From Escherichia coli (lineage in GTDB: Bacteria; Pseudomonadota; Gammaproteobacteria; Enterobacterales; Enterobacteriaceae), in NCBI RefSeq assembly GCF_003018235.1, contig NZ_CP027437.1: DNA of 64,000 nucleotides; one strand, given 5' to 3'. Positions 1 to 9,784 of the stretch are shown one piece after another. A program made the position numbers and the translations under genes. The notes beneath the pieces were generated by a model, which saw only the letters and a list, made by a program, of their open reading frames with translations, was not told the DNA's origin and ran no database searches. Numbering within the stretch: position 1 is the first letter of the stretch; each line of letters starts with the position of its first letter.

Positions 1-878
1 CCACCGGGTCATGTACATACGACTGCGTGTTCAGCCCGCCGCTCAGTTTCAGCGGATCCTGGCTTAAATACTGCCCCGTTCCGGCATCGTAGTAGCGGTG
101 TAAATTATACCACAGCCCGCTCTCCTCATCCTGCCACTGGCCCATGAAGCCCGCATCACAGCTTTCACGCTCACTGTCCGGCGAGTCGTTTGCTGCCAGC
201 CCCCACAGGCTGCGGTGTTTCGTCCACACCTTCCGCCCGTTTGCGCTGTACATCTCCTGCGGTACACCGTCCGGGCCGGTCACTATCGGGTAAAAATGGC
301 TCCGGTCATCATTCGCCGCCCGACGTTCCTTCGCCAGCAGTTCAAATCCGCCACGGTAGTGCCACTGCTCCCGCAGCGCCGGGCTGCCGTCTGCATACCG
401 CTTCTCGCTCGCCGACAGCGCCATGCCCTGCCACTGGTAGCGCACTTCACTGATGGCCTGTTGATGTCGTTTCCACGTCGCCCAGATAACGCAGCGTTTG
501 GCAGTTCTCCGGCCAAAGGCGTCGTAGCTGTACTGCCATACCTCACCGTCTGGTGTCTTTATCTCGCGCAGACGGTCAAAATCGTCCCAGCGGTAGCGCC
601 ACTCCTGTGGGCGAAAGCCGCGTTTTTGTTCTGTGCGCTTTGTCACCCTGCCGCAGGCGTCGTATTCGTAGCGGCTGTCGCCCGCCTGAGTCACACATTC
701 ACGGCTGTACTGGTGCTGCGACAGAATGCCGTTTATCCGGCTTTCCGCTATCTGCTCGTTTACCGTATAGCGATAGCGTTCTTCCTGCGCCGGGCCGTCG
801 GCGTCCAGCCGCAGTACACTGGTTATCTGGTCGCGGGCATCCTACTGGTAGCGCGTTTCCCGCTCCGTACGCGTTTAT
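1..878 (-). pseudogene. Orphan rhs core 3' fragment. It is 5'-truncated and has no start codon. It leaves the window at the DPVGW core-end motif.
   Basis: nt 1-878 are a near-identical direct repeat of nt 1703-2583 inside the main rhs gene. They read in the same YD-repeat frame on the minus strand. An in-frame TAG sits at 842-844 where the main copy has TAC. No RBS or ATG is present. Confidence 0.8.
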
Positions 879-910
879 TAGAAATCAAAAGATACCGATA
901 AAGATTCCCT

Positions 911-1267
911 TCATTTTTTTTCAAGCAACTCCTCATAAAGCCACATAACTAACCATTTACTATTTCTTGAATGTTCTAACATATAATGTCCAGACAAATA
1001 TTTAACAAATTCGCCATCATGAAGAGAAATATTTTTATTCATACTGTCAGAAATTATATTCAGAGTCCCTGACTGTACAAAAATATATCCCGTCATCATT
1101 GTTGTAGGTAAAGACAGCGCAGTTTTGTGAATTTTACTAACAATTCTTGAATTATTTACATTTAAACCAACTGTTAATCTAACATTATCTTCAGTGAGAG
1201 GGATGTCAAAATAATCTGACCACTTATAGATATGAAAGTCACTTAAATTTAGAAAAAACTCTCTCAT
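911..1267 (-). CDS. Putative Rhs immunity protein (RhsI), 118 aa
   Basis: AT-rich ORF beginning at an ATG (1265-1267) 19 nt downstream of the rhs stop. The tool's 157-aa version overlaps the rhs 3' end, so I trimmed it to MREFF. Position and composition are typical of rhs immunity genes. No family was recognised. Confidence 0.6.
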   Translation of the reverse strand: MREFFLNLSDFHIYKWSDYFDIPLTEDNVRLTVGLNVNNSRIVSKIHKTALSLPTTMMTGYIFVQSGTLNIISDSMNKNISLHDGEFVKYLSGHYMLEHSRNSKWLVMWLYEELLEKK

Positions 1268-1286
1268 ATTATTCTCATATAAAAGC

Positions 1287-4200
1287 TTAAGGAAAAATAA
1301 CCCCGTATTCTTCAAACGCAGCTCTAGCCGCTGCTTCAGATGCAGCGTTCTGAGTTCCAGTATTTCCGAAATGATAATGACCACTGTGAGGGGCTATATC
1401 AGTACCGAATCGTCCATTCACAACAGTAGCCTCTCCCGCCGCAAGAACTGGTTTTCCATTTGCAATTGCAGCATGAGAAATTTCTATCCCATCTTGCATT
1501 TTTGGTGCAGTTAATAGAGTGCCATCCTCAAGAAGGACATACTTTATATCGCCAGCTTCATCAGCCATATCTGCAAAACGTGGGTCTGATGGTTTCATCG
1601 GTTCAACACCGGCCTCTCTCATTGCAGCCAATTCCTCATCTAAATGTTCCGGTAATTGATTTTTAAACGGGCACCCAATAAAACCCCACGGATCACACCA
1701 GCCCACCGGGTCATGCACATACGACTGCGTGTTCATCCCGCCGCTCAGTTTCAGCGGGTCCTGGCTTAAATACTGCCCCGTTCCGGCATCGTAGTAGCGG
1801 TGTAAATTATACCACAGCCCGCTCTCCTCATCCCGCCACTGGCCCATGAAGCCCGCATCACAGCTTTCACGCTCACTGTCCGGCGAGTCGTTTGCTGCCG
1901 GAAGTCCCCACAGGCTGCGGTGTTTCGTCCACACCTTCTGGCCGTTCGCGCTGTACATCTCCTGTGGTGCGCCGTCCGGGCCGGTCACTATCGGGTAAAA
2001 ATGGCTCCGGTCATCATTCGCCGCCCGGCTTTCCTTTGCCAGCAGTTCAAACCCGTCACGGTAATGCCACTGTTCCCGTAGCGCCGGGCTGCCGTCTGCG
2101 TAGCACTTCTCACTGATGGAAAGCGCCATGCCCTGCCACTGGTAGCGCATTTCACTGATGGCGTGGCCTTGCTGCTTCCATGCAGCACGGATAACGCAGC
2201 GTTTTGCGGTTCTCCGGCCAAAGGCGTCGTAGCTGTACTGCCATACCTCACCGTCTGGTGTCTTTATCTCGCGCAGACGGTCAAAATCGTCCCAGCGGTA
2301 GCGCCACTCCTGTGGGCGAAAGCCGCGTTTTTGTTCTGTGCGCTTTGTCACCCTGCCGCAGGCGTCGTATTCGTAGCGGCTGTCGCCCGCCTGAGTCACA
2401 CATTCACGGCTGTACTGGTGCTGCGACAGAATGCCGTTTATCCGGCTTTCCGCTATCTGCTCGTTTACCGTATAGCGGTAGCGTTCTTCCTGCGCCGGGC
2501 CACCGGCGTCCAGCCGCAGTACGCTGGTTATCTGGTCGCGGGCATCGTACTGGTAGCGCGTTTCCCGCTCCGTGCGCGTTTTCGACCACACTTCATGCCC
2601 GGTCAGGCGGCCCGATTTATCCCACGCGTAGCGGTGTTCGCCCAGCGGTCGCCACGACGCCACGCTCTGGTGACCGCCAGCCAGCCGCTCTGCGCCCTGT
2701 TTTTGCCATGCCGTACGCCCGCAGGCGTCATATCCCTGCTCCTGCATATACACCGCATGGTTCAGCGGCGTCTGTGCCAGCCAGCTTTCCTCATTCTCCG
2801 GGCGGTAACGTCTGCTTTTTTCCAGCCCGGCGGGGGAATGACCGAAGTCCATCCGGTGGCCGTTGCTGCGGTAGCCCATGAGAATGCCCGAAGCATCGTA
2901 TTCTCTCTGTGTTTCCCCGTCCGGCGTTGTGGTGCCCGCCAGCCGTCCGGCTTCGTCGTAACGGTACTCCGTGCGCTGGCCATCCTGCTCTTCCGCCACC
3001 AGGCGATGACGTTCGTCCCACTCCAGTTTTACCTCGCTGGTCAGCGTGTAACCTGCTTCACTGGCATCACTGCGCTCATACACCTGCGCGCTCACCATCC
3101 GGTCATAATGGTCGTACTGATAACAGAGTTGCTGATGCTCGCCGCTGATGGTCGTCACCCGGCCATAGCCATCCCGCGCATAGCGCCATACGCTACCGTC
3201 CGGGCGGTGTTTTTCTGCCAGTCGGCCCTGTTCATCACGGATATAGACGGTTCTGCGTCCGGACCAGTCATCCTCCCCGGCCATCTGGCCCGCTGCATCA
3301 TAGTGCAGCCGCCACTGCTGGTTGCCGCTGCGCGTAAGCTGCGTCAGCCTTGCGGCACCGTCGTAGTTGCAGAGTATCCGCTGCCCGCCCGCGTCTTCCA
3401 CTTCCCGCAGCAGGTCAAATGCCCCGTGGCGGTAGCGCGTGGCCTGCCCCATGGCCCCGGTGTGGAGGGCGATTTTGCCTTCACCGTCATAGCGGAAGGT
3501 TTCCACGCCGCCATCGGCCCGGATAACCGCACTCAGTTTCTCATGCGGGTTATCAGCACCGGGGCGGTACTGCCAGTTCATGCTGCGCCCTTCCGCATCC
3601 ACCAGCCCCGTCAGCCGCAGCCAGCGGTCTTCCGTGTAATGGGTCGTGCGGCCTTCAGCATCCGTATGGGAAAGCAGGCCACCGTGGGCGCTGTAGCCCC
3701 ACTGTTCGTGGCTGCCGTCCGGGTATGTCACTTCCTTCAGCAGACCGTCTTCGGTATGACGGTACTGCCATTTTTGCCCGTTCACTTCCCGCCGGATAAG
3801 GTTCCCTTCGGCGTTATAGCTATAAGCTGCCGTGGTGTGATGGTCACGGTAGGCCGTTACCTGGCCGAACTCATCCCGCTGCCATTCACGCTTGCGCCCG
3901 TTCTCGTCCGTTTCGCTCAGGATACGCCCGGCGTAGTCGCGTTTTATCTGTGTGATACGCCCGCCCGGCTGGCGGATACACAGCGGCTGGTCGTATTCGT
4001 TACGCTCCCATTCAGTGATACGCCCCAGCGGGTCACGCTGTTTTTTCAGCAGCCAGGATTCATCGAACCACAGCGTGGTGGTGGCTCCGGTGGCGTCGGT
4101 ATAATCGGTTCTGCGCTCATCAGGGAAGTAGCGGAAGGTGTCGTTATACAGGCCTTCCTGTGTGCCTGTGGCAGTCACCCGGCCTTCATCGTCATAGCGC

Positions 4201-5813
4201 AGGTGGAAGTGCGTCGGGCCATTGTCGCGCCAGGAACTCAGCCAGCCCTGTTCGGTATAGGTATAGTGCAATGCACCATTAAAGCGGGTCTGTACATCAC
4301 GCAGCCGCTGCTCATCGCCGTGGCTGATATAGTCGTAACGCACCAGCTCGCTGCCGTCTGACTCGTCGGTCACACGGAATATCTGCCCCTGCGGGCCACA
4401 CCTCACCCGCAGACTCAGGCCGCTACTGTGGGTTACGTTTGTCAGGTGGCCGATGGCGTTATAGGTGAAGCGAATTTCGTTGCGGTTGCGGTCTTTTATT
4501 ACTGTTAGCCGCAGACGACGTGCGCCGGGGGAGATGGGCGTAAAGATATAACCCAGTTGTGAGTATTCGTCGAAAATAATAGCCCGCTCACGGTTTCCCA
4601 GGAGGCGATAGTGCGGGACAAGCAGGTTACGGCTACTGTATGGTGCCTGCTCCGTGGAGTAGGCCGGACATAGCCCCTCAGCATCAAAGTAGGTGACGTT
4701 TTTCCCGTTGCTATCGAACTCCAGAAACTGCGACCAGTTACACAACCAGCGACTGCCCAGCAAACCACTAACCGGATGTCGGCCTGTATAAGCACGTTTC
4801 AGCGTCAGCGGTAAAATATGCGAATAGTTGAAATCAGTTCGGTAATCCAGATATTCACCCGTTCCGGTATCCACCGGATCGCTGAACCCCTGACTGATAC
4901 GCTCATTGGCGGCTCTGTTTAACTGCTTTGCTCCCCATAGAGCTGTTAACACCTCCAGACTTGATACAACAGATTGTTCCAGTACCGTCATATCTGCATT
5001 AATCGGCCCATACTGTCCGGTTGTCTTATCAGCCGTGATGGTTTTACATCCTTCCTGAATAACTGCCGAGCAGGTAATTTTATGGCCCTTACGCGCCAGC
5101 GGCAGGCTGTTGACGGAAATAATTTTGCTCCCTTCCACTATCTGCGGAGGAGGACTGCCCGGATCCTTACTACATTCAACCGGATCAGTGACGCGAGCTA
5201 CCGCTTTTCCTTCAAAAAAAACATTAGGTGAGCCTTCTACAATCTGCCCGGTTTCAGATGCCCAGCGGGAACCAATTACCATCGCTGCACCACCGACAAA
5301 TCCACCAGCTAATCCCCCGGCCCCGGCAGCAACGGTGGCAGCAAGCACACCCAATGCGGCGCCCCCTGTAGCGACAACCAGAGCCCCCACTGCAATCCCT
5401 ACGATAAGTCCACCGATTAACCCACCAATAGCACCCAGAAAGGAATTGTTATGAACAATGTGATGACCCACACACGCCGGTATATCTGTTGGGCCGGAAA
5501 CAGCGTGATCTTTACCCCAGGTATCCATGAACCAGTCACCTGCTTTGGTGCCCAGCCATCCCCCCAGCATCCCGCCAGCCAGTCCGGCAATCAAAGGGCC
5601 TCCAAATCCTGCAACAGCTTTGGCTATTCCGGCTGCACAGGTATTTGCTGCGGCGGCTGCCAGTCCCACCTTTGCCGTTGCTCCCACCATGCTGACAGCC
5701 ATTATTCCAGTACTGGCAATATGTCCTGTGGTAGCAATACTCTCCACTGTTTCGGCATTACTGTCCCGTTGGTCCAGCTCCGCTAACTTCTCCTGCGCGC
5801 TTTTTTCCGTCAT
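1287..5813 (-). CDS. rhs: Rhs-family T6SS effector, 1508 aa. Layout: N-terminal hydrophobic Gly/Ala segments, a split PAAR domain, the YD-repeat shell, then a variable C-terminal toxin.
   Basis: Many YD repeats (YDxxGR-type). PAAR-like motifs GKAVARVTD and LPLARKGH. Core-end motif YVHDPVGWCDPWG, followed by a roughly 130-aa divergent tail. SD GGAAGGA lies upstream of the ATG at 5813. Sits directly downstream of a DUF1795/Eag gene. Confidence 0.92.
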   Translation of the reverse strand: MTEKSAQEKLAELDQRDSNAETVESIATTGHIASTGIMAVSMVGATAKVGLAAAAANTCAAGIAKAVAGFGGPLIAGLAGGMLGGWLGTKAGDWFMDTWGKDHAVSGPTDIPACVGHHIVHNNSFLGAIGGLIGGLIVGIAVGALVVATGGAALGVLAATVAAGAGGLAGGFVGGAAMVIGSRWASETGQIVEGSPNVFFEGKAVARVTDPVECSKDPGSPPPQIVEGSKIISVNSLPLARKGHKITCSAVIQEGCKTITADKTTGQYGPINADMTVLEQSVVSSLEVLTALWGAKQLNRAANERISQGFSDPVDTGTGEYLDYRTDFNYSHILPLTLKRAYTGRHPVSGLLGSRWLCNWSQFLEFDSNGKNVTYFDAEGLCPAYSTEQAPYSSRNLLVPHYRLLGNRERAIIFDEYSQLGYIFTPISPGARRLRLTVIKDRNRNEIRFTYNAIGHLTNVTHSSGLSLRVRCGPQGQIFRVTDESDGSELVRYDYISHGDEQRLRDVQTRFNGALHYTYTEQGWLSSWRDNGPTHFHLRYDDEGRVTATGTQEGLYNDTFRYFPDERRTDYTDATGATTTLWFDESWLLKKQRDPLGRITEWERNEYDQPLCIRQPGGRITQIKRDYAGRILSETDENGRKREWQRDEFGQVTAYRDHHTTAAYSYNAEGNLIRREVNGQKWQYRHTEDGLLKEVTYPDGSHEQWGYSAHGGLLSHTDAEGRTTHYTEDRWLRLTGLVDAEGRSMNWQYRPGADNPHEKLSAVIRADGGVETFRYDGEGKIALHTGAMGQATRYRHGAFDLLREVEDAGGQRILCNYDGAARLTQLTRSGNQQWRLHYDAAGQMAGEDDWSGRRTVYIRDEQGRLAEKHRPDGSVWRYARDGYGRVTTISGEHQQLCYQYDHYDRMVSAQVYERSDASEAGYTLTSEVKLEWDERHRLVAEEQDGQRTEYRYDEAGRLAGTTTPDGETQREYDASGILMGYRSNGHRMDFGHSPAGLEKSRRYRPENEESWLAQTPLNHAVYMQEQGYDACGRTAWQKQGAERLAGGHQSVASWRPLGEHRYAWDKSGRLTGHEVWSKTRTERETRYQYDARDQITSVLRLDAGGPAQEERYRYTVNEQIAESRINGILSQHQYSRECVTQAGDSRYEYDACGRVTKRTEQKRGFRPQEWRYRWDDFDRLREIKTPDGEVWQYSYDAFGRRTAKRCVIRAAWKQQGHAISEMRYQWQGMALSISEKCYADGSPALREQWHYRDGFELLAKESRAANDDRSHFYPIVTGPDGAPQEMYSANGQKVWTKHRSLWGLPAANDSPDSERESCDAGFMGQWRDEESGLWYNLHRYYDAGTGQYLSQDPLKLSGGMNTQSYVHDPVGWCDPWGFIGCPFKNQLPEHLDEELAAMREAGVEPMKPSDPRFADMADEAGDIKYVLLEDGTLLTAPKMQDGIEISHAAIANGKPVLAAGEATVVNGRFGTDIAPHSGHYHFGNTGTQNAASEAAARAAFEEYGVIFP

Positions 5814-5843: not shown

Positions 5844-6275
5844 TTATTTATCCTGCGGCATTCCAAAACAAAAATTCAATAATGCTCCCCGCATCGCTTT
5901 ACGATCCTCCTCTGCCAGCGCCTGTGTTGAGGAATAGGTCAGCGTCAGTACTTGTCGCTCGTTCAGAATTACCAGCAGCAACTGCTGTATCATCACCCCC
6001 TTGTTATCCCAGCTAAATTCCCAGTATTCCGCCGGGCGCTCCTGTACATGACAGCGTTCTTCGACGGTGAACACCATTTTCGACAGTTCGGTACGGAATT
6101 TCTTTTTCTGCACCGCCAGATAGTCATCAAACTGCGCACCATCCGGCAATATTTCACGGGTAACAACAACATTAGCCCCGGCAATCGCACTTAATACCGG
6201 TGTCAGAATATTCATACTGCTGTCCTGCCAGTTTCCTGGCAGGGTGAAATGTCCTTCATTAATTAGATATTGCAT
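5844..6275 (-). CDS. eagR: Eag-family (DUF1795) T6SS effector chaperone, 143 aa
   Basis: N-terminus MQYLINEGHFTLPGNWQDSSMNIL is typical of DUF1795. Located between vgrG and a PAAR-Rhs gene with TM segments, as for EagR/SciW in SPI-6. Confidence 0.8.
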   Translation of the reverse strand: MQYLINEGHFTLPGNWQDSSMNILTPVLSAIAGANVVVTREILPDGAQFDDYLAVQKKKFRTELSKMVFTVEERCHVQERPAEYWEFSWDNKGVMIQQLLLVILNERQVLTLTYSSTQALAEEDRKAMRGALLNFCFGMPQDK

Positions 6276-6480: not shown

Positions 6481-6930
6481 CTAATGGTTTCTCAAAAAAA
6501 TCTTTGCGTAATTAGGATTATTTAACTCTAAGTTCACCACATTAGATTTAAAATTATAAAAATCCGCATCTCTATCATCCTCTGTAACCTTTGAATCAAC
6601 CGTCGACCACACATTCGTATAAAAACTACACTCATGCTTTCCTGGCGTAATATGGTAATCTCTGGCAATTTGTACATAGTCCCCCACCTTCATTTCTCCG
6701 GGAGAGATTTTGTAATATTCCCCTTGTCCAAGGTTGTACATTACACCTGAATAACGAATCTTCTTGCCATCACATTCAACACTCAATTGATCGGAGCTCG
6801 GATATTTACCTTGAGATATGTACCTGACATCTATATATAATGGAATTTCACCATTATTTTTAACACGTACAGCAACATAAACGTCATCTTCTTTGGGTAT
6901 AACATCCACAATAACCATGTAACATGGCAT
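6481..6930 (-). CDS. Hypothetical beta-rich protein. Candidate immunity or inhibitor for the VgrG C-terminal metallopeptidase (149 aa from the ATG at 6930).
   Basis: AT-rich ORF starting 17 nt after the vgrG stop. No signal peptide or lipobox is visible. The start is ambiguous (ATG at 6930 or 6918; the tool's upstream start overlaps vgrG). Confidence 0.45.
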   Translation of the reverse strand: MPCYMVIVDVIPKEDDVYVAVRVKNNGEIPLYIDVRYISQGKYPSSDQLSVECDGKKIRYSGVMYNLGQGEYYKISPGEMKVGDYVQIARDYHITPGKHECSFYTNVWSTVDSKVTEDDRDADFYNFKSNVVNLELNNPNYAKIFLRNH

Positions 6931-6946
6931 CCATAAATTAAGCCTT

Positions 6947-9784
6947 TTATTCAAAATAACGTTCAAAGTTATAAGCACTTTGTAATGAGGCCCGCTTACC
7001 CTTTTTAGCTAGATCTATACCACCACTTCTTAAACCCTCATCAAAACTTCCGAGCACATCATAAAAATGTGACATTTCATGAATCAAAGTTATGACTTGT
7101 GAATCACGACCGTCCAGGGGATCGTCAATAAATTTATTTCCAAGATAAATGGTATGGGTATAATCTCCATCATTAACTCTTCCATGAACATTAACATCCA
7201 TAAATTCAAAATTTTGGTACTTAATCCCCTCATTAATTTCAATTTCTTTTTTTACAGCGTTTAAAATTTTATTCCTGGCTGCCTCATCATCAACACCGAA
7301 TATATTTCCAAAACGCTCTTTATCGTTATCATTCCAACGAATCAACTCATCTCTTGCTGATTTTAATTTTTTACGCTGCGCTTCAAGAACAAGTTTCATA
7401 TCATTTTCACTGATCCTTTTCTCCTCTATCATTTCATAAACAGGATTTCCATAATTATCTGTAAGAGGTTTTCCATTATATCCAATTATAGCTACTCCAT
7501 TACCCGGCCCTGATGTAGAAAAATCTCTAATTGTATTAATTTTATATTTACCATTTGCGTCACTACCGCCAGGATTCAGTGCCAAGTGAGTAGGTCCATC
7601 AAGGATGATAGTGCCGTCTGAATTCATCACGAGAGTGCTGCTTCCCACAGTCAACGTAATGTTCGTTGCCGCAGTCAAATGAATGGCACCAGATTTTGAT
7701 GTGATGGTAATATCCCCTTCGACAGTCTCCGTGCAGGTTCCCGTTTCTACCGTCACTTCGCGTTTACCCGTTTTCACCGTCAGAGACTGGTCACCTTCTG
7801 TCACAGTAATATCCCGGTTGCCTTTGATGGTTTCGGTGTGCTTACCCTCAACAAATTCTGTGCGATCGATTTTTACCGTAGATGTTTCGTTATGAATGAT
7901 GGTTTTCGTCCGATCTGCCTTTACCGTGTGTGTTTCGTTATTTTTCACGACGGTATTCAGATCTTTCTCCGCAAGAAACCTCACTTCTTCCGCACCTGTT
8001 TTATCGTCAAAGCGCAGCATGTTTCCGTTGGTCGGCCCGCCATACAGCGAGTGGCTGAATATCCCGCTCTGCGACGCCATGCCCGGCAATCCCCACGGCG
8101 GCATGGTGTCCTGGTTATAGGTGCGCCCTACAATGATCGGTAAATCCGGGTCGCCGTTTTTGAAATCCACCAGCACTTCCTGGCCGATGCGCGGGATCTG
8201 GATCATCCCGAATCCTTTCCCCGCCCACGGGTAGCTGACGCGGATCCAGCAGGAGCTGTTTTCGTCATTCTTTCCGTAACGGTCCCAGCCAAACTGGACC
8301 TTCACCCGGCCATATTTATCCGTCCAGATTTCCTGCCCCGCAGGGCCGGTGACGATGGCGCTCTGCGGGCCTTTGGTGTGGGGTTTGCTCAGGGTTCGCT
8401 GTGGGCGGTAAACTTCGCTGGTGGGATGCAGTTCAAACGTGGTGACATAGGTAAAATGCTGCTCCTGACCGCTGTGCTGCGCATTATCCCGTAAAAACAG
8501 CGTGGTCTGTACCAGTAGGTATTCCTGGTTGACCTCTGCCGTTGGATGATTCATCAGCGTAAAGGTGTAACCCGTCATGAGGGTGCGGATATGACCTGCC
8601 CCATGTGCCCGGCTGCCGGGGCTGCGCTGCGCTTCCATACGAATGCGCGTCAGCATCTCGCCTTCGCCCGTAGTGAAGTAATCACCAGGCCATTCATAAT
8701 GCTCGTATTCAGCATGACCGGTATCACGCGGACTAGCCACGGTACTTTTAAGCAGCGAACGAGGCTTCATAAAATCAAAATCGTCCATCACCCACTTTCC
8801 AGTACGTAGCCTCTCACTGGCCGTAATGGTGTGGATAAATTCCTTGTCCAGTTTCAGACCTTCCTGGTGCCACTCCACCAGTGGCGAGTCAGGGCACGCT
8901 TTATGACCATTGATGGCATCCGCCAGCACCAGCGTATGGCTGTTCTCGCTGTGCTCAAACCACCAGTAAATTCCCCACTCCTGCATCAGGCGCTGGATGA
9001 AATCAAAATCCGTTTCACCGTACTGTACCTGCCAGGCACGAGGTGGATAATTTTCCACCAGCCGTTTTTCCACCGGAAAGGAATATTCATCCAGTACTTC
9101 ATCGAGAATATCCACCACGGTTTTATTCTGGAACGCCTTGTAGTCGCTGGTATGGGTCAGCAGCTTCAGCCATGGCTCAATGCGTAATTCATACGTTACC
9201 GAACGGCCCTCATGGCCGACCACCCGCGCTGCCGTCACCAGCCCGCTGATATACCGTTTTTCGCCACCGTCCAGTTCAATACTGACGCACAGGTCTTTGC
9301 CCACCATGGGCTGAAGCGGCAGGTTGGCAGCGGGAGAAACGTAACCCAGGTTCAGGATGTCCGGCGTTTTAAGCTGTACTGTGTAGGAAAACAGATTCCC
9401 AAGTCCTTCCGAACCATTCATGCCTGCAAACAAAAGCAACTGCGGCGGCACCGCGCTACCACTTACTGTGACGTTATGCGCCCCCGGACCACCGGCTGCA
9501 AGCGACGACGCCGCATCCTGAACTGTACCAGCCATATCCGAGATCCCTACTGCAGCAGCGGCAGCCTGCGCAGCAGTTACTGCAGCTTTAACCAGACCTG
9601 ACGGTTCCGGCAACGCACCAAACAGGTCCGCCGCGGCCTGTTCTGCCATCTCCTCGGCGGCACCAGATACATCGGTTACGGCTGAACTGGCGCTTACAGC
9701 ACTACTTTCTCCGGCTATCGGTGGCGTGGAGATAGCTGGCCCACCGTTACTGCCAGATTTATTACTCGTAGATACAAAACTCAT
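6947..9784 (-). CDS. vgrG: Evolved VgrG spike protein, 945 aa. It has an Ala/Ser-rich N-terminal extension and a C-terminal aspzincin-like (M35-like) zinc metallopeptidase domain.
   Basis: gp27/gp5-like core ([12 protein letters not shown]..., beta-helix repeats [25 protein letters not shown]...). The last roughly 207 aa are AT-rich and contain TLIHEMSHF (HExxH at nt 7067-7081). An Asp lies 9 residues after the second His (GSFDEGL), which is the aspzincin spacing. SD AAGGAA lies before the ATG at 9784. Confidence 0.9.

Follow-up and report, generated by a model that had tools for sequence, protein, structure and literature searches.

The locus described here belongs with a small set of known Rhs systems, the first of which is the rhs-main/rhs-CT-orphan pair of Salmonella pathogenicity island 6 (SPI-6) in Salmonella Typhimurium LT2 (STM0291/STM0292; Koskiniemi et al. 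2014, PMC3967940). In that pair a gene for a main PAAR-Rhs protein is followed by its immunity gene and then by an orphan core fragment in direct orientation. The same order is found on the minus strand at the left end of the window, by which we mean the whole 64,000-nt stretch of Escherichia coli DNA that was analysed (assembly GCF_003018235.1, contig NZ_CP027437.1). Here a main rhs gene is followed by a putative immunity gene and by an orphan rhs fragment that repeats the end of the main core. Main and orphan genes of LT2 recombine over 522 bp at 95% identity (PMC3967940), compared with a homology of 878 bp at 94% in the present locus. As in LT2, the orphan is without signals for the initiation of translation or for export and is accompanied by an immunity gene of its own, and recombination in the core joins its tip to the main gene. 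The two systems differ in species, type VI secretion cluster and toxins, the locus here combining an EndoU orphan with a resident tip of uncharacterised family. Unlike in LT2, the orphan toxin has probably become a pseudogene through an amber codon, and the one natural recombinant found arose by simple deletion on an rhs with a frameshift rather than by a selected duplication-plus-recombination. An initial annotation of the window had described the Salmonella fusion as one that deletes the resident toxin/immunity pair; in the published case recombination followed duplication and the resident immunity was kept (PMC3967940).

The locus is also similar to the displacement arrays of Enterobacteriaceae, for which a C-terminal displacement model of rhs tips has been described (PMC2935791, Jackson et al. 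2009). In both, each tip comes with a stretch of core whose length varies (here 878 nt and then about 282 nt), AT-rich tips (30-33% GC) are joined to a GC-rich core (58-64%), and an ISAs1/H-rpt element closes the array. Core fragment, tip and immunity gene form a 1,705-bp unit bounded by direct repeats, which matches the circular-intermediate model of the same work, although only the deletion side of that model is documented here, in assemblies. Similarly, E. coli VgrG-EagR-Rhs islands (Ma et al. 2017, cited in bioRxiv 10.1101/2024.03.05.583533) show the vgrG-eagR-rhs order with N-terminally truncated Rhs fragments and their own immunity genes downstream. The tips described for those islands are MafB19 deaminase, AHH and MPTase4, and the text consulted mentions neither the EndoU orphan nor the resident tip found here. 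Finally, like Neisseria MafB/MafI, the orphan pairs an EndoU-type domain with a small MafI-resembling protein (30.3 bits, cut-off 31). Some MafB toxins are EndoU nucleases. Unlike in the Neisseria system, the delivery scaffold here is Rhs/type VI and not MafB.

The locus is a further example of a well-described kind (PMC2935791, PMC3150448, PMC3967940), and orphan tips and their fusion by recombination were already known. It shows the features that define PAAR-Rhs effectors and their orphan rhs-CT/rhsI arrays, except for an intact orphan toxin frame; that frame, judged by proxy from assemblies at most 12 mismatches from the window, is broken, and it is intact in more distant alleles. What the locus adds is a clean natural case of the predicted deletion, with parent and product two single-nucleotide polymorphisms apart in 13.5 kb of flanks and a crossover interval of 28 nt, together with gene-conversion mosaics between the main and orphan copies. 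Additionally, there is evidence of decay in displaced tips beside invariant immunity genes, with two independent inactivating mutations in the orphan toxin, a pattern that fits orphan arrays as mainly immunity reservoirs. Least understood is the uncharacterised resident toxin tip, which is also the only element that might repay experimental work.

Our preferred reading, to which we give a probability of roughly 80%, is that the left end of the window contains the distal part of a vgrG-eag-rhs operon for type VI secretion in E. coli, together with a classical displaced-tip array, in which the orphan toxin is likely dead and the two core copies recombine. The orphan would be a former tip, shunted downstream by C-terminal displacement on arrival of the resident module. 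The following features, all on the minus strand, enter into this reading.

1-878, minus strand: orphan rhs core fragment, the last 878 nt of the core and one arm of the repeat (alignment and PF05593); the window edge cuts it at D-P-V-(G).
842-844, minus strand: in-frame TAG of the orphan, for which the main copy has TAC at 2547-2549.
876-881, minus strand: TAA TAA in the orphan frame (translation and alignment).
911-1267, minus strand: putative immunity gene of 118 aa, 30-33% GC, of no family (open reading frame and position).
1287-5813, minus strand: main rhs (open reading frame and domain matches).
1287-1697, minus strand: resident C-terminal toxin tip, 136 aa after DPVGW, of uncharacterised family.
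1698-1712, minus strand: DPVGW core-end motif of the main Rhs (TIGR03696 match).
1703-2583, minus strand: repeat arm of the main gene (repeat search and alignment).

Global alignment of positions 1-878 with 1703-2583, in direct orientation, gave 881 columns with 52 mismatches and one 3-nt gap, or 94.1% identity, and a repeat of such length and identity cannot be chance. The repeat search returned it as two collinear families, 1-197 against 1703-1899 (98%) and 191-490 against 1896-2195 (86%). The sole indel between the copies is the 3-nt gap, at orphan 198 and main 1900-1902, and thus the orphan frame is kept in register. Identity along the repeat is a mosaic, with a longest identical run of 269 nt (504-772), a drop to 78-82% across 379-478 and values of 92-100% outside these two stretches; mismatches are densest in a patch at orphan 445-503. 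Codon differences between orphan and main copy comprise 23 synonymous and 18 non-synonymous changes. These results bear out the initial annotation, which had described a direct repeat with scattered substitutions, one 3-nt indel and one divergent patch.

Translated from the minus strand, the two copies correspond to the C-terminal YD-repeat portion of the Rhs core, and orphan positions 1-841 match RHS_repeat (PF05593, E 7.8e-15), in agreement with the claim that the YD-repeat frame is kept. The contrast between the orphan TAG at 842-844 and the TAC of the main gene, likewise noted at the outset, was confirmed by the alignment. A second closure of the orphan frame, TAA TAA at 876-881, lies exactly at the 5' boundary of the homology. 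The earliest start-type codon in frame after the orphan TAG is a GTG at 692-694, there is no ATG, and no Shine-Dalgarno sequence was found before the GTG on inspection by eye. The earlier description of the orphan as having neither ribosome-binding site nor start codon holds to this extent, but RefSeq uses this very GTG as the start of a 361-aa 'RHS repeat domain-containing protein' in the 99.7%-identical strain MEI003. The orphan has no N-terminal delivery region and no proper translation start, and its core fragment, in direct orientation, begins 32 nt past the stop of 911-1267. It reaches the DPVGW motif at positions 1-10, as had been stated, but those ten positions cover no more than D-P-V and, at position 1, the first nucleotide of the Gly codon. 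In the related loci L006 and L028 the codon equivalent to window 842-844 is TAC, possibly by conversion from the main copy.

The left flank of the window genome lies outside the window, and the orphan tip, its immunity gene and the amber codon were read from other assemblies. Relatives were gathered by exact-protein look-up with the 118-aa protein, the Eag protein and a 78-aa fragment that follows the amber codon. The flank assemblies are 99.6-99.99% identical to the window (1-38 mismatches over 11.3 kb). GCA_038099465.1 shows a single mismatch in 16,275 nt, at window 2313, inside the main repeat copy. E. coli MEI003 (L005) matches window 1-3000 at 99.7%, and its locus is annotated beside yafV, ivy and fadE.

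These assemblies bear out the prediction of the initial annotation that a second toxin/immunity module, different from the first, follows directly beyond the window edge. Past DPVGW the orphan enters a 128-aa tip, the intact allele of which matches EndoU_bacteria (PF14436) with 50.2 bits against a cut-off of 25.3 (E 4.2e-13). This tip differs from the main one and is followed by its own immunity open reading frame (ORF), which encodes 73 aa and overlaps the stop of the EndoU tip. The 73-aa protein, present on 304 contigs, is named 'MafI family immunity protein' in UniRef and aligns with the full MafI profile (NF033691, positions 1-67; E 2.8e-7), its 30.3 bits falling just under the curated cut-off of 31. 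A third rhs remnant follows, a 97-aa ORF of about 282 nt that is 87% identical to window 315-596 and 2020-2301 (mid-repeat). It occupies 11933-12226 of L002, about 665-960 nt left of the window edge, and is truncated on both sides and without a toxin tip. After it come an ISAs1 transposase gene, frameshifted in some strains, and yafV.

The EndoU tip was also sought more widely. Among 5,426 complete RefSeq E. coli genomes, the DNA of orphan tip and immunity gene was found in MEI003 only, and among one genome per species the sole match to the tip, at 67% identity, was in a Bacteroidetes metagenome-assembled genome. A search of 5.8 billion proteins gave 14 short matches (54-69% identical, apart from the 78-aa post-stop fragment) and no full-length Rhs; it did not return the 361-aa orphan ORFs either and is thus uninformative on deployment elsewhere. 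No relative of solved structure was found for the tip by sequence.

The main evidence on the state of the orphan toxin is a TGG to TAG change at the Trp of GKFPDTW, 46 codons after DPVGW, 141-143 nt left of the window edge and at orphan codon 339. Four of the ten aligned tip loci carry the TAG (L002, L004, L009 and L010) and the other six lack it. The TAG is present in every locus that differs from the window by at most 12 mismatches over 6.3 kb (1, 1, 3, 10, 10, 12 and 12), and loci with an intact toxin codon are all at least 17 mismatches away. One identical orphan haplotype is shared by all TAG loci, indicating a single origin of the mutation. The amber codon deprives the tip of the region aligned with positions 71-126 of the EndoU profile, and the 78-aa ORF behind the stop is found on 68 contigs. 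Furthermore, L026 carries an independent 1-nt frameshift in the orphan core. In contrast to this decay, the ten aligned loci show no variation in the 73-aa immunity gene.

Judged from its near-identical relatives, the window genome very probably carries the TAG in its orphan EndoU tip, and the orphan EndoU toxin is probably knocked out in this lineage. A decaying displaced toxin beside a kept immunity gene fits the pattern to be expected of such an array. The invariant immunity gene would then be the part of the orphan that is still likely functional, protecting against relatives that deploy the EndoU tip. The initial annotation had proposed to extend the sequence leftwards and had held that further stops in the fragment would speak against it. 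Extension by way of the near-identical assemblies shows the ORF continuing past DPVGW into EndoU, and a further stop, the TAG, probably interrupts it here.

An in-register crossover between the two copies deletes 1,702-1,705 bp, including the resident tip and 911-1267, which agrees with the loss of about 1.7 kb foreseen by the initial annotation. Nearly every such crossover gives an open core frame, since the stretch downstream of the TAG at 842-844 makes up 841 of the 878 homologous nt. Exactly this deletion is seen in L020 (GCA_974496725.1, a 5.0-Mb contig), in which rhs runs straight into the EndoU tip and the 73-aa gene, without the resident tip and the 118-aa gene. Along the single core copy of L020, an unbroken run of 29 diagnostic sites of main type gives way to an unbroken run of 32 of orphan type. 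Removal of exactly 1,705 bp from the array-bearing L024 (GCA_050626315.1) yields the L020 sequence, and the crossover falls within 28 identical nt at the window equivalents orphan 417-444 and main 2122-2149. The two loci show 2 differences in 8.3 kb upstream and none in 5.2 kb downstream, compared with 9-50 differences between L020 and the other array-bearing strains. A derived 1-nt deletion that frameshifts rhs is common to L020, L024/L007 and L011.

Exchange between the copies is not limited to deletion. In L011 reciprocal gene-conversion patches are present, the main copy being orphan-type at 323-503 and the orphan copy main-type at 132-266 (orphan coordinates). Related wild genomes show that the two 94%-identical core copies are a working substrate for homologous recombination. 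Fusion by recombination is documented for the locus family and not for the window strain. Recombinants are rare, the chimeric protein being found on 1 contig against 279 for the 118-aa protein and 304 for the 73-aa protein. The shared rhs deletion, seen in one sublineage, is GG to G at rhs nt 2843 (about window 2970 equivalent). L004 and L008 show changes of homopolymer length in rhs (T8 to T7 and A6 to A5), which are either real or sequencing errors.

The same deletion in the window lineage would give a product that ends 45 residues into the EndoU tip and is most likely inactive. The cell would at the same time lose the immunity gene against a resident toxin that its siblings continue to fire. 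With a truncated toxin gained and the resident immunity lost, the switch would be doubly disfavoured here, and the label of a ready-made switching substrate, which the initial annotation had given the repeat, probably does not apply to this strain, given the TGG to TAG change in all assemblies at most 12 mismatches away.

Several points weigh against the preferred reading. For the EndoU tip with its amber codon, and for its immunity gene, the evidence comes from other assemblies and not from this genome, and the orphan toxin would be restored by one TAG to TGG reversion or by an amber suppressor. That 911-1267 acts as an immunity gene is argued from its position and is putative. The natural recombinant is known from one assembly, at assembly level. 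Moreover, the rhs of L020 is already frameshifted, and so L020 demonstrates that recombination happens and not that toxin switching is selected.

Of the other explanations, the one that survives best is compatible with the preferred reading and concerns transcription. The initial annotation had called the orphan silent, which is unproven; both copies carry a perfect extended -10-like element at a position homologous to the internal P2 promoter of Salmonella rhs.

104-112, minus strand: TGGTATAAT in the orphan core, aligned with the -10 of the Salmonella internal P2 promoter.
1806-1814, minus strand: TGGTATAAT in the main copy, homologous to 104-112.

In Salmonella, P2 lies in the conserved end of the rhs core, has been mapped by 5' rapid amplification of cDNA ends and drives main and orphan tips, and P2-like sequences have been reported in E. 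coli too (PMC7043789). An internal promoter at 104-112 might transcribe the orphan tip and immunity gene in the manner of the internally expressed toxin-antitoxin modules of Salmonella, and its main effect here would be to keep the orphan immunity gene expressed. In favour of this, the two sites, at homologous positions of both copies, are the only occurrences of the element in 64 kb. However, the element also spells codons W-Y-N of a conserved Rhs motif and may be explained by its coding role. At the -35 position the sequence is a poor match (AGGATG), and a strict sigma-70 consensus scan of 1-2700 found no promoter, and terminators no more than chance. Internal transcription of the orphan, predicted from sequence and analogy, is possible but on balance not the state that we would expect, and we treat the candidate P2-like promoter as a lead and not as a finding.

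A more far-reaching reading joins this promoter to several other elements. The 1,705-bp unit would be an actively excising and re-inserting cassette with the postulated circular intermediate, gene conversion would run in both directions, the resident toxin would belong to a family without described relatives, and the orphan would be transcribed from the internal extended -10 promoter. We regard this combination as doubtful.

It is more doubtful still that the orphan is an intact, silent and ready-to-use toxin, so that one recombination in this strain would switch the toxin deployed. The geometry is right, nearly all of the homology lying downstream of the TAG at 842-844; the EndoU tip is intact in the sister alleles MEI003, L003 and L006-L008; and a natural fusion exists in L020. 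Against this stand the seven closest assemblies, all with the amber codon in the EndoU domain. Furthermore, a plain deletion also removes the resident immunity gene, a loss that, as the Salmonella study argued, can be tolerated only after duplication (PMC3967940). We consider this explanation unlikely for the window strain.

Equally improbable is that L020 represents the ancestral state before insertion of the resident module, or an assembly in which the repeat was collapsed. Integration of a circle of core fragment, tip and immunity gene, as in the Jackson model, reverses the reaction exactly and would produce an identical mosaic (PMC2935791), and R-U-R arrangements can be mis-assembled. L020, however, is nested within strains that bear the array: the array is complete in L024, its closest relative, and the two share the derived rhs frameshift, from which it follows that L020 is a deletion product and not an ancestral state. 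The junction falls within 28 identical nt even though runs of more than 100 nt were available, and together with the 5.0-Mb contig this argues against a k-mer collapse. The flanks and the shared frameshift, compared between assembled sequences, thus decide for L020 as a recent deletion product. A further proposal, that the repeat itself is an assembly artefact, is rejected on its presence in more than 20 independent assemblies.

The preferred reading places the array at the end of a type VI operon, and the main rhs and its neighbours agree with this. The main gene is intact and encodes a 1,508-aa effector of PAAR-DUF6531-RHS architecture. It contains an N-terminal PAAR domain (PF05488, E 3.6e-16, residues 186-252), an RHS repeat shell (PF05593, E 7.2e-61; also TIGR01643) and Rhs_assc_core (TIGR03696, 64.4 bits, residues 1316-1377), with DPVGW at 1698-1712. 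A vgrG gene and a gene for an Eag (DUF1795/DcrB) chaperone are encoded alongside it, as for type VI PAAR-Rhs effectors, and TssM and TagF are encoded upstream in the same locus.

5844-6275, minus strand: DcrB/DUF1795 (Eag-type) chaperone gene (PF08786, E 8.6e-27).
6947-9784, minus strand: VgrG spike of 945 aa with a weak Aspzincin_M35-like C-terminal extension (profile search).

Neither the resident tip nor the 118-aa protein has a match in Pfam or NCBIfam. Their stretch has 30-33% GC against 58-64% in the core, and low GC relative to the core is the usual signature of an acquired Rhs tip and immunity gene. Position, size and low GC together point to 911-1267 as the putative immunity gene of the resident toxin. 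The resident tip has only five homologues in 5.8 billion proteins, with the common motifs EISHA, GKPVLAAGEA and PHSGHY. Its AlphaFold model is confident (mean predicted local distance difference test, pLDDT, 91.8), and the predicted fold had no match in the PDB. The exact 118-aa protein was found on 279 contigs (indexed in 400 blocks). A member of its cluster, at least 90% identical, occurs in Pseudocitrobacter sp. RIT415, which suggests that the module of resident tip and immunity gene moves between genera.

Some minor observations concern the vgrG region. VgrG is annotated as a pseudogene in MEI003. In L026 and L027 an additional effector-immunity pair (Glucosaminidase / T6SS_Tgi2PP), absent from the type of the window, lies between tagF and vgrG. 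The C-terminal extension of VgrG gave a sub-threshold match to the metallopeptidase family Aspzincin_M35 (28.5 bits against a cut-off of 30). After VgrG, at 6481-6978 on the minus strand, lies an ORF of 150-165 aa without a family, which could encode a partner or immunity protein of the VgrG extension.

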